Shown: positions 3,109 through 6,870, counted from the stretch's first letter. The stretch: 11,336 nucleotides of DNA from Promethearchaeota archaeon (GCA_019057865.1 JAHLWP010000069.1:1-11336), one strand, 5' to 3'. Numbers and translations: made by a program. Notes: a model not told the origin generated them from the letters alone.

Positions 3109-4257
3109 ATGGTTGATTATATTAAAATAGAGGGAAATCCTGCTGAAAGAGGTTTCCAACAGGGAGAAAAATTGAAGGATAAGATTTATAATATGTTTGA
3201 TGTTGTCTTTCATTCAAAAATGTTTTCGGAAGTGACCTCTAAATTAATACCACTCTCAATAATTAAACTTGCGTTAGGCATTATGGGTAAAAAAAATATA
3301 AAGAAGCCTTTACAACAACTTCTTCCAAATCAGTATGATAAGATGATAGCTCTAAGTAAAGGAGCTGGTATAAAAGGAAAGATCCTTTATGGAAGTCATT
3401 TTATAGAAATAATGTCAGGAAACCCGAAATCTCTTTACAAAAATCCTCCAGTTCAGGCATGTTCAATGGTTTTCGCACTTCCAGAAGCTACCACAGATAA
3501 TTCGATGATATTTGGTCGGAATTATGATTTTCCTAATGTCCTCCAACCATTCCAAGTAGCTCGCGAAGAGGTTCCTGATAATGGCTATAAAAATATAAAC
3601 ATCACCCAGTATCCTCTTACAGGTTGTCATATGGGATTAAATGAAGAGGGTTTATCAATTGGTTATAACTATGGTCGCTCCTGGAAAAAAGAGCCACTTG
3701 ATTTTAGGCTAAGAGGTGTTCCTGGTACTTTCATTGTACAAGAAGTGTTAGAAACTTGTGCAACAACTCAAGAAGCTATTGAGTTTATTACTAATTTCAG
3801 TGCTAGGTCAAATGGATGTCATTATGGCCTAATAGACGCTTCTGGAGACTCTTGTGTTATAGAAACGACAAGTACTCGCCATGCCATTCGACGTCCTGAA
3901 GATGGCATCTTAGCTCATACTAACCACTACCAGACTGAAGAACTCATTGATGCAAATTTACCAGATTATGTACGCTTTAAAATAGACGATATGGATATTT
4001 CTCCTATAGAATCTCCTATTAGACGTTATAAGAGAGAAATTGAGTTATTAACAGAAAAGAAAGGCCAAATTACTATGGATACAATTAAAAAGATTCTAGG
4101 TGATCATGACAATAGAGAACCAGATGATTTTACAGTATGTACACATTCTCATAGATTTGGTACACTTGGCTCTGTAATTATCTTACCATTAAAAAAAGAA
4201 TTCTGGGTTACCGATTATTATCCATGTAATTCTGAATATGAGAAATTTTCATTATAG
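3109..4257 (+). CDS. Peptidase C45 family Ntn-hydrolase (acyl-CoA:6-aminopenicillanic acid acyltransferase-like, autoproteolytic)
   Basis: N-terminal 'IEGNPAERGFQQGE', nucleophile site 'QA-CSMVF', 'GRNYDF', 'GLNEEGL', 'LIDASGD', 'AHTNHY', 'VCTH..FGTLGS'. Confidence 0.9.
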   Translation: MVDYIKIEGNPAERGFQQGEKLKDKIYNMFDVVFHSKMFSEVTSKLIPLSIIKLALGIMGKKNIKKPLQQLLPNQYDKMIALSKGAGIKGKILYGSHFIEIMSGNPKSLYKNPPVQACSMVFALPEATTDNSMIFGRNYDFPNVLQPFQVAREEVPDNGYKNINITQYPLTGCHMGLNEEGLSIGYNYGRSWKKEPLDFRLRGVPGTFIVQEVLETCATTQEAIEFITNFSARSNGCHYGLIDASGDSCVIETTSTRHAIRRPEDGILAHTNHYQTEELIDANLPDYVRFKIDDMDISPIESPIRRYKREIELLTEKKGQITMDTIKKILGDHDNREPDDFTVCTHSHRFGTLGSVIILPLKKEFWVTDYYPCNSEYEKFSL

Positions 4258-4303: not shown

Positions 4304-4792
4304 TTAATATCTTGTTCTAGTCGCTTGGATTCGCAGTTTTGCTTTAGTTCTTTCTTTTGCATCTTGTAATATAATATATTGTGTTTTTGATGGTAATTTT
4401 ATTTGAAATTCTTGTTCAGCAACAACTTGGTCCTTTTTCAAATGATCTTTTTCTCTTAGAATAACTTTTATTGTTTCTACTGCCGGTTCTTCAGCTCGAA
4501 CTGTTTTGAATTGACTCCAAAGAGACATGTCTGCTCTCGAGACAAATTCTTGATTTTTCTGTAATTTAATCGTCCCTTTATTTGGAAATCTAGCTTTAAA
4601 AACCTTAGGACCGTCCACCTTAAAGTAGAATTCTCCACGCCATCCTAAAATATCATAATCTTTCAAAGTTTTTAGGCTCATCAATTCTATACTGATTAAA
4701 TATCGTTCTTTTTCTTCTCCTACTTGATCTTGAGTAAAAGCCTCACCTTTTGCACGAGTCTTTTTTCCCTTAGCATAATACCTTCGACTAAT
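4304..4792 (-). CDS. C2-domain-like protein, about 162 aa, with a probable ATT start (the ORF track gives only 4304..4684)
   Basis: The frame stays open from 4684 up to 4798, adding (M)SRRYYAKGKKTRAKGEAFTQDQVGEEKERYLISIE. SD AGGTGA lies 6 nt before ATT at 4792-4790. C2-like pattern: 'YLISIELMSLKTLKDYDILGWRGEFYFKV' and 'IKVILREKDHLKKDQVVAEQEFQI'. Confidence 0.65.
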   Translation of the reverse strand: MSRRYYAKGKKTRAKGEAFTQDQVGEEKERYLISIELMSLKTLKDYDILGWRGEFYFKVDGPKVFKARFPNKGTIKLQKNQEFVSRADMSLWSQFKTVRAEEPAVETIKVILREKDHLKKDQVVAEQEFQIKLPSKTQYIILQDAKERTKAKLRIQATRTRY

Positions 4793-4798
4793 AATAAT

Positions 4799-4804
4799 TC
4801 ACCT
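4799..4804 (-). promoter_or_regulatory. Shine-Dalgarno site AGGTGA before ATT-ATT-ATT
   Basis: The minus strand reads TTTAT-AGGTGA-ATT-ATT-ATT-AGT-CGA. The TGA inside the SD is also the in-frame stop that bounds the ORF. Confidence 0.65.
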
Positions 4805-4925: not shown

Positions 4926-5195
4926 TTAACCCCAATCACTTTTATATCCTGTTCCGCCTCTTGGCCAGTTAAATATTAAAGCTCCTTCTATACAAACATA
5001 CCAACATGCACCGCATTCCATACATTTATCAAGGTTTTTAATAGTCGCTTTATTATTAATGATCTCAAAGCAGTCTGCTAAGCATACTTTTACACAATTC
5101 GCACATCCAATGCATATCTCTTCCTCAATCTTGATAAATTCACCTGTACCCTCGATCCACTCAATTCCCGGAATTTCTTCAAAGGTTTTAACCAT
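4926..5195 (-). CDS. 2x[4Fe-4S] ferredoxin, FixX-like
   Basis: Two CxxCxxCxxxC motifs (CIGCANCVKVC, CMECGACWYVC) and a FixX-type C-terminus 'WPRGGTG..WG'. Starts 1 nt after the flavoprotein stop, with a purine-rich SD (GAGGGGGA) in the upstream gene's tail. Confidence 0.9.
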   Translation of the reverse strand: MVKTFEEIPGIEWIEGTGEFIKIEEEICIGCANCVKVCLADCFEIINNKATIKNLDKCMECGACWYVCIEGALIFNWPRGGTGYKSDWG

Positions 5196-5196
5196 T

Positions 5197-6870
5197 TCAT
5201 CCCCCTCTTCTATTTATCGGTTCTTGGAAAATTAATGGATTCGCATGATCAACAAAATTGATTAACTTTTTATTCAAACTCTCAGTTAGGGGATTTAATA
5301 ATTTTAATAAACCTAAATAAAAAGGTTTAATAAATGGTAATGTAATTTTCATAAACTTATTAGCAGCATTAGAAAACGGGTGAATAAACCATTTAAATAA
5401 ACGACTGGAAAATTTTACAAAGGAATTTATCCAATTTAGTATTGACAAGAAAAATGATTCTTTAACCGTTATTTTATTTTGTAATTGAATTTTTAGCTCT
5501 TTCTTTCTTGAATAATCATAACTTTCATGCAACCAGTTTTGGAAATATCTAAAATACATTTTTATCCATTTTGAAATGATCTTCGGGTCTTTTCTTAGAT
5601 ACAAAAGTATAGTTTTAATTAATGGAGTAGTGAAATGAGTAAGTGAGCCTAAACCCCAACCATTATATATAAATTTCTTCAGTTTCCTCCTACTATGTTG
5701 CTCTTGTGCTATTCGTAGATTATACCTATTAGTGCTTGAAATGGACCATTGGATGATAGAATGAGCTTTTATTCGCTCATCATACTTTTTTAAAAATGAT
5801 TTAGAAAAATTATTTACTTTTATGGCATTAATAGCCACATCAGCTGCTATTTCTGCAGAAAACCACGCTGCTGGTACACCATCACAGAGTTCTGTACTTT
5901 CAAGACCAGCAGCATCTCCAATTAAAATCATTCCATTTATATGGTTATGCATATTTCGTAATTTTTTATTAAGTCCAACATAAATTTCAAAACCTTCCCA
6001 CATTCTTGCTCTTAATTTAGCTCGAGGAGCTACCTTATTTTTCCACCATGGTAAGGTTGATGTGATATTAACATGATATTCATCAAATAATTTTTTAAGA
6101 TTAGGAATTGATTTCTGATCTGTTCTTAAACATTGGTCTTGCATAAAATGAAGACTTTTTCTATAAGGCCAAACCATTAATCCGTTACCATACCCAAGAG
6201 GAGGAGCTATTTTTTGCTCGTCCCATCCCCAGCACATTTTTACTGAATATCCAAATATCTTATCAATATCTTCTTTTGACATTTCATAATCGTAGATATC
6301 AGCTAATGAAATTGCTTCAGGAGGATACTTCTCTCTCACACCAGCTTTAATTGCCAATAAACCTTGAGAACCTTCTGCATCAATAACAATCTTTGACCTA
6401 ATTTTCTCTCCTATATCTGTTATGATGCCTTTTACATATCCATCTTCTTTTATTACATCTATTACTGTGGTTGATGTTCTTAATTCTGCTCCAGCTTCAA
6501 TGGCTTTCTTAGCTTCCCATTCACAAAATGGCTTACAATATGTATTATAACCAAATGCGATTATTGGTGAAAAAGGTTTTGGGACCTTTAAAGAGTCGTC
6601 TATATCAATCTCTCCTTTTTCTATATCTTTAATAATATAATTAATTATCCCATCTGCTGGTCTTTCAAAAGGAGGGTTACCATCCCTAATGAATTCTGGT
6701 CCAAATAGAAAACCGTAAAAAGGTATGGTTAATCCAGAAATAACTTTGTCTCCAACATTCTGCGATCTTTCTATCATCAGTGTTTTTAAACCGGCATCTG
6801 CGCACTTTTTAGCAGCAATAGGACCACCAAATCCAGCGCCAACAACAACTATATCATATTTTTCATTCAT
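5197..6870 (-). CDS. FAD-dependent oxidoreductase of the FixC / geranylgeranyl-reductase superfamily with a C-terminal extension
   Basis: Rossmann motif 'YDIVVVGAGFGG', 'IERSQNVGDKVISG', 'VIDAEG' and 'LIGDAAG'. Coupled to a FixX-like ferredoxin. Confidence 0.85.
   Translation of the reverse strand: MNEKYDIVVVGAGFGGPIAAKKCADAGLKTLMIERSQNVGDKVISGLTIPFYGFLFGPEFIRDGNPPFERPADGIINYIIKDIEKGEIDIDDSLKVPKPFSPIIAFGYNTYCKPFCEWEAKKAIEAGAELRTSTTVIDVIKEDGYVKGIITDIGEKIRSKIVIDAEGSQGLLAIKAGVREKYPPEAISLADIYDYEMSKEDIDKIFGYSVKMCWGWDEQKIAPPLGYGNGLMVWPYRKSLHFMQDQCLRTDQKSIPNLKKLFDEYHVNITSTLPWWKNKVAPRAKLRARMWEGFEIYVGLNKKLRNMHNHINGMILIGDAAGLESTELCDGVPAAWFSAEIAADVAINAIKVNNFSKSFLKKYDERIKAHSIIQWSISSTNRYNLRIAQEQHSRRKLKKFIYNGWGLGSLTHFTTPLIKTILLYLRKDPKIISKWIKMYFRYFQNWLHESYDYSRKKELKIQLQNKITVKESFFLSILNWINSFVKFSSRLFKWFIHPFSNAANKFMKITLPFIKPFYLGLLKLLNPLTESLNKKLINFVDHANPLIFQEPINRRGG

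Follow-up and report, generated by a model that had tools for sequence, protein, structure and literature searches.

A small basic protein of Promethearchaeota with a predicted, highly diverged C2 fold

The gene at 4304..4792 on the minus strand of the window (the whole stretch of DNA analysed, 11,336 nucleotides from a Promethearchaeota archaeon, GCA_019057865.1 JAHLWP010000069.1:1-11336) encodes a protein of 162 amino acids which, judging from predicted structures, is most likely a cytoplasmic, stand-alone and highly diverged topology II C2 domain. In eukaryotic trafficking and signalling, few membrane-targeting modules are as common as the C2 domain. The protein represents a conserved, single-copy, unannotated family in the archaeal group closest to eukaryotes, with a predicted C2 fold and an acidic loop pattern; small and soluble, it offers a testable candidate for the archaeal counterpart of the Ca2+-dependent membrane module. 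Overall, an earlier sequence-only reading of the gene as encoding a Ca2+-responsive membrane-targeting protein is partly supported: its structural half holds, while the response to Ca2+ and the targeting to membranes are putative.

The minus-strand frame 4304-4798 is open over 164 codons and its translation (...ISRRYYAKGKKTRAK...LKDYDILGWRGEFYFKV...ILREKDHLKKDQVVA...RTKAKLRIQATRTRY*) is identical to the sequence quoted in that reading. The coding sequence ends with a TAA stop at 4304-4306. Standard ORF calling gives a product of only 126 (TTG 4684) or 125 (ATG 4681) amino acids, because the frame contains no ATG, GTG or TTG upstream of codon 43/44. The codon aligned with Met1 of the homologues is an ATT (4790..4792, minus strand). 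Six nucleotides upstream of it is the Shine-Dalgarno-like sequence AGGTGA (4799..4804, minus strand), a putative ribosome-binding site whose TGA also serves as the in-frame stop bounding the open frame on its upstream side. In a DNA alignment of the start regions of 55 loci, 13 loci besides the window have ATT at the Met1 position (L003-L009, L011, L012, L014, L020, L021 and L056), with mostly ATG elsewhere, apart from GTG in L017 and CTG in L030 and L045. The motif (A)GGTG(A) is found 5 to 8 nt upstream of the start codon in nearly all 55 loci and always precedes ATT.

Homologues of about 162 amino acids start MSRRYYAKGKKT or MPRRYYAKSKKT, indicating that the N-terminal stretch belongs to the protein. 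Among the 14 loci with ATT, 73% of differing codons are synonymous in codons 2-43 and 69% in codons 44-162; this similar share shows that the N-terminal extension is under the same purifying selection as the remainder. From the length of the homologues, the shared ATT and AGGTGA-type motif, this purifying selection and the strand formed by residues 28-42, the 162-residue model with an ATT start is correct, and the gene and frame originally proposed stand. It is highly improbable that the extension is untranslated (giving a 125-residue product from ATG 4681) or that the gene is decaying. The lack of a canonical start before codon 43/44 would suit either, as would an in-frame TAA in one relative (L018), but the shorter product would be without strand β1, purifying selection acts on codons 2-43 across all 14 ATT loci, the ATT and the AGGTGA motif are conserved in position, and in relatives the same place is filled by ATG, GTG or CTG.

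The retention of a weak start codon over many species suggests that translation of the protein is deliberately limited or regulated. A further effect of the recurrent ATT is that gene callers shorten the protein, so that its first strand is lost, which helps to explain the lasting label 'hypothetical'. The sequence-only reading had foreseen annotation as a truncated hypothetical, and this is borne out both by the ORF caller (125-126 amino acids) and by the records of homologues. In the close relative L018 (G193:C58:22443-22925), the in-frame TAA separates the basic tail from the first strand; it could be a sequencing error, a pseudogene mutation or a site of read-through.

An AlphaFold2 model of the window protein, built from a 29-sequence alignment (pLDDT 82.8, pTM 0.74), has residues 1-27 disordered and residues 28-160 all-β. 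The β-sandwich core (residues 28-162; 4307..4711, minus strand) has eight main strands (28-42, 53-60, 66-69, 90-99, 104-115, 121-133, 135-143 and 149-160), and the connection 70-89 holds a small additional hairpin. When the model was compared with the PDB by Foldseek, nearly every match listed was a C2 domain, the best being that of cPLA2 (E 5e-6), with further matches to Trichomonas C2 proteins, otoferlin, myoferlin, Munc13, CEP120, dysferlin, CAR4, Itch and PLC. VIA-align, which is independent of Foldseek and covers 48,161 representative chains, also gave cPLA2 as the best match (1cjy_B, Z 12.2, rmsd 3.3 Å over 120 residues), and all 50 matches listed were C2 domains. A second AlphaFold2 model, of the family member P0148 (27% identical to the window protein; pLDDT 83.4), again had 1cjy_B as its best VIA-align match (Z 12.0), and again all 50 matches listed were C2 domains. 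Across both models the matches to 1cjy_B span 118 to 120 residues at 3.1 to 3.3 Å.

The eight-stranded antiparallel sandwich with C2 connectivity that characterizes the C2 superfamily is present in both predicted structures, and in both models there is no strand ahead of the one preceding the acidic loop, as is typical of topology II. Topology II members include cPLA2, perforin, PLC and ferlin C2A, and in these the first strand runs straight into Ca2+-binding region 1. An acidic loop directly after the first strand, together with best matches to cPLA2, perforin, PLC and ferlin C2A, thus points to topology II. On these models the protein very probably has a C2 fold, in keeping with the eight-stranded sandwich that the sequence-only reading expected. 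A search of a viral structure library found only giant-virus enzymes bearing C2 domains, with no link to phage.

Sequence comparison gave a different result. The window protein has no match to the Pfam C2 model PF00168 even at E 10, and when 23 family members were compared with this model the single match was P0127, with 12.6 bits (E 0.17) against a gathering threshold of 22 bits. A check against PF00168 proposed at the outset was thus negative: by its predicted fold the family belongs to the C2 superfamily, but it falls outside Pfam PF00168. Searches of Pfam, NCBIfam, PADLOC and PHROGs with the window protein and divergent members gave nothing significant, and DUF7161, DUF6501 and LmuB were rejected as identities, being below threshold and matching over short stretches only. 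There was also no match among PDB sequences by phmmer or by profile hmmsearch. Since no sequence match is significant, homology to eukaryotic C2 domains rests solely on the predicted fold.

The motif parallels noted in the sequence-only reading hold in position and register but not in sequence significance. The C2 consensus strings are SDPYVKV, P-x-WNE-x-F and D-x-D-x5-D, and the family has GEFYFKV, LW(S/N)(E/Q)F and E-x-D-x(3-4)-D in a parallel order. Residues 68-117 of P0127 align to positions 30-85 of PF00168, covering LWNEF and ERD...DD in the expected order. The likeness to C2 is therefore real by position and not significant by sequence alone; it is the predicted fold, rather than the motifs, that raises the assignment above chance. 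A language-model atlas gives a weak, independent lead to C2: 15 of 30 named look-alike clusters have one family set in common, of which the listed cluster is bacterial and has PF00168 in 30% of its members, and lower-scoring look-alikes include eukaryotic C2 clusters as well as MNNL, which is annotated as the Notch-ligand C2 domain.

The closest structural parallels are the C2 domain of cPLA2 alpha (1cjy, 1rlw and 6iej) and the topology II C2 domains of PLC, perforin and ferlin C2A, with which the family has in common the eight-stranded antiparallel sandwich and strand order. As in the cPLA2 domain, there are acidic residues in the β1-β2 and β5-β6 loops and hydrophobic residues at the tip of loop 1. 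Unlike cPLA2-type domains, the family is only 8 to 12% identical to them, falls below the PF00168 threshold, has Glu for Asp twice and has a β3-β4 connection of about 20 residues with an invariant R-x-P-x-x-G-x-I. In addition, unlike cPLA2, the protein is unattached to a catalytic domain and has an extra basic N-terminal tail. In size (about 130 to 170 amino acids, essentially one C2 domain) it resembles the single-C2 proteins CAR4 of plants (5a50), OsGAP1 of rice (4rj9), an elicitor-responsive-gene C2 protein (1wfj) and those of Trichomonas vaginalis (9zk0 and 9bky), all of which were among the structural matches. CAR proteins bind membranes in a Ca2+-dependent manner and recruit partners. 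However, these small eukaryotic proteins are recognized by PF00168, whereas the archaeal family has its own insertion and tails and no detectable sequence relationship to them.

Five acidic positions (D, E, E, D, D) had been singled out from the sequence, and these are real and conserved. In a sample of 38 members less than 80% identical to each other, D47 in the β1-β2 loop is acidic in 89% (with Asn in a further 5%), E54, which opens β2, in 100%, E114, which closes β5, in 97%, D116, which opens the β5-β6 loop, in 95% and D121, which opens β6, in 92% (with Asn in a further 5%). D45, also in the β1-β2 loop, is acidic in 79%. By comparison, the rest of the acidic sites in the window protein (E101, E102, E126, E128, D144 and E147) are acidic in 21 to 58%. 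C2 domains that bind Ca2+ (synaptotagmin, PKC and cPLA2 type) typically gather about five acidic or Asn ligands from loops 1 and 3 at one tip; the ligands are D40, D43, N65, D93 and N95 in cPLA2 and D172, D178, D230, D232 and D238 in synaptotagmin. The five positions that are 89 to 100% acidic match C2 Ca2+ ligand positions by strand order, two of the five being Glu.

By strand order and conservation, the β1-β2 loop (residues 43-54; 4631..4666, minus strand), which contains D45, D47 and E54 together with hydrophobic I48, L49 and W51, is the probable equivalent of Ca2+-binding region 1. The putative equivalent of region 3 is formed by residues 114-121 (E-K-D-H-L-K-K-D; 4430..4453, minus strand), spanning the end of β5, the β5-β6 loop and the start of β6; it is marked out by conservation, and the PF00168 alignment of P0127, although weak, shares this register. 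Positions 48 and 118 are hydrophobic within the family and K119 is basic in 84% of the 38 members. In topology II C2 domains, regions 1 and 3 adjoin at one tip, and both termini are at the opposite tip. Thus D47, E54, E114, D116 and D121 are predicted, from strand order and not from coordinates, to cluster at one end of the sandwich, as the sequence-only reading proposed. Neither of the two outcomes which that reading named as refuting, a fold other than the C2 sandwich or acidic residues spread over both ends, emerged from the models and the strand order.

From this arrangement a mechanism can be proposed. One tip would bring together the side-chain carboxylates of loop 1 (D47 and E54) and loop 3 (E114, D116 and D121), which could hold at least one divalent cation, in all likelihood Ca2+. 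Bound cation would cancel the negative charge of the tip and form a bridge to anionic lipid head groups in the archaeal membrane, while hydrophobic I48, L49, W51 and L118 and basic K119 and K120 may add to membrane contact. At the opposite tip, the N-terminal tail and the basic C-terminus might make a second, electrostatic contact with the membrane or with a partner.

Taken as a whole, this proposal of a stand-alone C2 domain working as a cation-mediated peripheral membrane-binding module is about as likely as not; cation binding, lipid binding and a cellular role of this kind are inferences from the fold and the acidic positions. Asgard archaea have been reported to possess gelsolins regulated by Ca2+ (PMC9433394), which makes Ca2+ control plausible in these organisms. 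Counting against a Ca2+ site is the Glu that replaces the Asp of classical C2 domains at two of the five positions. C2 domains with no binding of either Ca2+ or lipid are numerous, and this too counts against both the cation and the lipid part of the proposal, while the pI of 9.9, which would also suit nucleic-acid binding, counts against the membrane.

A C2 fold could also be used independently of Ca2+, by a protein-protein adaptor or structural subunit comparable with Munc13 C2A, whose acidic patch and N-terminal tail dock a conserved partner. Such an adaptor is somewhat unlikely, although several features would fit it. The structural matches include Munc13 C2A and Notch-ligand C2 domains, which have protein-protein roles according to their entry titles, and the disordered tail, with its nearly invariant A14 and KKTxAKG, resembles a short linear binding motif. 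Moreover, the enlarged β3-β4 connection, equivalent to Ca2+-binding region 2, carries the conserved signature R-x-P-x-x-G-x-I-x-L-x-x-N-x-x-F (residues 68-83; 4544..4591, minus strand), and its R68-P70-G73-I75-N80 block is unmatched among classical Ca2+ ligands. R68, P70, G73 and I75 are invariant in alignment A2 and conserved in 97 to 100% of the 38 non-redundant members, in which N80 and F83 are conserved in 92% and 87%, respectively. Against an adaptor, five conserved acidic residues exactly at loop 1 and loop 3 are the hallmark of a cation-binding C2 domain, and no conserved co-directional neighbour or fusion indicates a partner.

The strongly basic termini described in the sequence-only reading were confirmed, with seven K/R and no D/E in residues 1-16 and seven K/R to one D/E in residues 145-162; the whole protein has 36 K/R to 22 D/E. 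The N-terminal tail (residues 2-27; 4712..4789, minus strand), with the consensus RRxYxKGKKTxAKG, is predicted to be disordered (pLDDT 52-64). Within it A14 hardly varies, and basic residues occupy positions K8, K10 and K15 in 74 to 79%. At the other end, the last strand and basic C-terminus (TKAKLRIQATRTRY; residues 149-162; 4307..4348, minus strand) are also conserved. Among the 38 members, basic residues are found at K150 in 89%, K152 in 95%, R/K154 in 89%, R159 in 87% and R161 in 87%, with T160 in 92% and Y/F162 in 92%. The chain ends R-T-R-Y, and K150 and K152 are outward-facing.

This composition raises the possibility of a small nucleic-acid- or ribosome-associated protein, in which the sandwich serves only as a scaffold while RNA or DNA is bound by the tail and C-terminus, both rich in Arg and Lys. 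The high pI, the excess of K/R over D/E, the conserved basic disordered tail and the presence of a single copy, widely retained within lineages, would all agree with it. Nevertheless, it is improbable: there is no nucleic-acid-binding fold among the matches listed (50 of 50 are C2 domains in both VIA-align searches), a conserved acidic cluster would be unexpected, and genes for translation or replication never adjoin the gene in the 32 loci examined. Nor does it show extra conservation, since the identity of the protein is 77 to 81% compared with 54 to 80% for its metabolic neighbours. Being about as conserved as its neighbours, the protein gives no argument from unusual conservation, which was dropped.

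A first protein search found 322 proteins. Almost all of the 120 matches listed are 162 to 168 amino acids long and 73 to 87% identical, with coverage of 93 to 100% (nearly all 99 to 100%). The same proteins, about 325 of them, were recovered by a profile search of a 5.8-billion-protein set, and HMMER against 1.84 billion cluster representatives found 36 proteins, all family members, of which the full-length ones have 152 to 167 amino acids. A search for related loci from alignment A3 found close relatives only. No fused or longer forms were found, in a search that is weak evidence on this point.

The gene is present once in the genome of the window. In a profile search of 400 Asgard genomes it was found in 182, usually once per genome. 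The families that are mostly positive are f1-f7 and f12-f17, and in about 190 genomes of 16 further Asgard families it was not found. Named records with the gene are Promethearchaeota or Promethearchaeia (Loki), together with one divergent cluster labelled Thorarchaeota, and one genome with the gene is a single contig of 6,035,313 bp. Metagenome-assembled genomes labelled Hod-, Hermod-, Thor- and Odinarchaeota (L061, L065, L073, L081 and others) have copies 67 to 96% identical to the Loki-type protein, and their labels look inconsistent. A 76%-identical copy is found on L120 (DATKTW010000084.1), labelled 'Candidatus Nanopelagicaceae bacterium', which is probably a mis-binned Asgard contig. Applied to the same 400 Asgard genomes, PF00168 exceeded its cut-off only once, and the frame matched there contains two stop codons. 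A 148-residue ORF in genome G302 with a weak C2 match proved to be a winged-helix protein, unrelated to the family.

According to a 2012 survey of the superfamily, C2 domains were not known outside eukaryotes and their origin was unclear (Zhang and Aravind 2012, PMC3495828). Prokaryotic C2-like domains have been found since, for example the syNOS C2 domain (9q05), which matches the window protein in VIA-align at Z 8.8. A C2-like domain has been reported or suspected in phage and bacteria, in the Bacillus subtilis prophage protein XepA (PMC6834076). Like the family, these are prokaryotic β-sandwiches of the C2 type. Bacterial atlas clusters of 137 to 162 amino acids, one of them partly PF00168-positive, are the nearest language-model neighbours of the family outside its own cluster, and on this lead eukaryotes and Asgard archaea may not be the only holders of C2-like proteins. 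Neither HMMER against the 1.84 billion representatives nor the PDB profile search gave a sequence link to bacterial or phage C2-like domains.

A eukaryotic signature protein would show homology to a family typical of eukaryotes and absent or rare in other prokaryotes. As to the suggestion that the protein is a candidate for this label, its similarity is at the level of fold only, and its failure to reach the PF00168 threshold, its absence from the roughly 190 genomes searched in 16 Asgard families and the bacterial look-alikes call for caution. It is doubtful, though conceivable, that the family shares true homology with eukaryotic C2 domains, as sister or precursor, rather than being a convergent sandwich, and works as a Ca2+-switched membrane binder in Loki- and Thor-type Asgard archaea. 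If it did, then taken with the Asgard gelsolins it would mean that archaea already had Ca2+-controlled recruitment of proteins to membranes ahead of the origin of eukaryotes, and the C2 domain would gain a prokaryotic origin, an open question in 2012 (PMC3495828). A literature search found no publication on this family or linking C2 domains to Asgard genomes, and structure-based surveys of Asgard and archaeal proteomes (including PMC12962969) make no mention of C2 domains in their main text.

Among otherwise varying loci, the recurrent neighbour is a gene of the geranylgeranyl reductase (GGR) family (TIGR02032, 182 to 189 bits). In the Thor-labelled family it lies 9 to 55 nt away and is convergent in all seven loci (L032, L036 and L046-L050). 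In the family of the 6.04-Mb single-contig genome it is 28 to 381 nt away in three of four scorable loci, being divergent in L030 and convergent in L029 and L044. Gene order is thus shared between two distant lineages. A GGR-type neighbour is missing from most of the Loki-type loci examined and from those examined in f14, f16 and f17. Since most of these reductase genes run convergently to the C2-like gene, co-transcription with it does not apply to them. The genome of the window has about nine genes of the GGR superfamily, from which chance adjacency is estimated at roughly 1% per locus.

The neighbourhood gives a hint, and no more, of a link to isoprenoid membrane lipids; this would speak for the membrane-binding module proposed above, while the mostly convergent orientation and the many loci lacking the neighbour count against it. 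One form of such a link would be a lipid-handling accessory of GGR-type flavoenzymes, in which a membrane-seated C2 domain recruits the reductase or presents an isoprenoid lipid. Adjacency in two distant lineages, at the low chance rate estimated, would speak for such an accessory, as would a different GGR/FixC-like flavoprotein with its ferredoxin upstream of the gene in both the window and L055. It is quite unlikely, however, as most of the gene pairs are convergent, many of the loci examined have no such neighbour, and synteny inherited within a lineage leaves only two or three independent events. A C2 domain that contacts the membrane through a cation is the reading preferred for the protein.

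In the window, the flavoprotein (557 amino acids; 5197-6870, minus strand) is upstream of the C2-like gene on the same strand and is followed directly by an 89-residue 2x[4Fe-4S] ferredoxin (4926-5195, minus strand), for which the best NCBIfam match is HgcB-like. The similar flavoprotein in L055 has 552 amino acids. Together, the window pair (4926-6870) resembles a reductase with its own electron donor. On the other side of the C2-like gene and convergent with it, 3109-4257 on the plus strand encodes a protein of the peptidase C45/acyl-CoA:6-APA acyltransferase family (PF03417, E 3e-26), a type of neighbour that is shared by L027.
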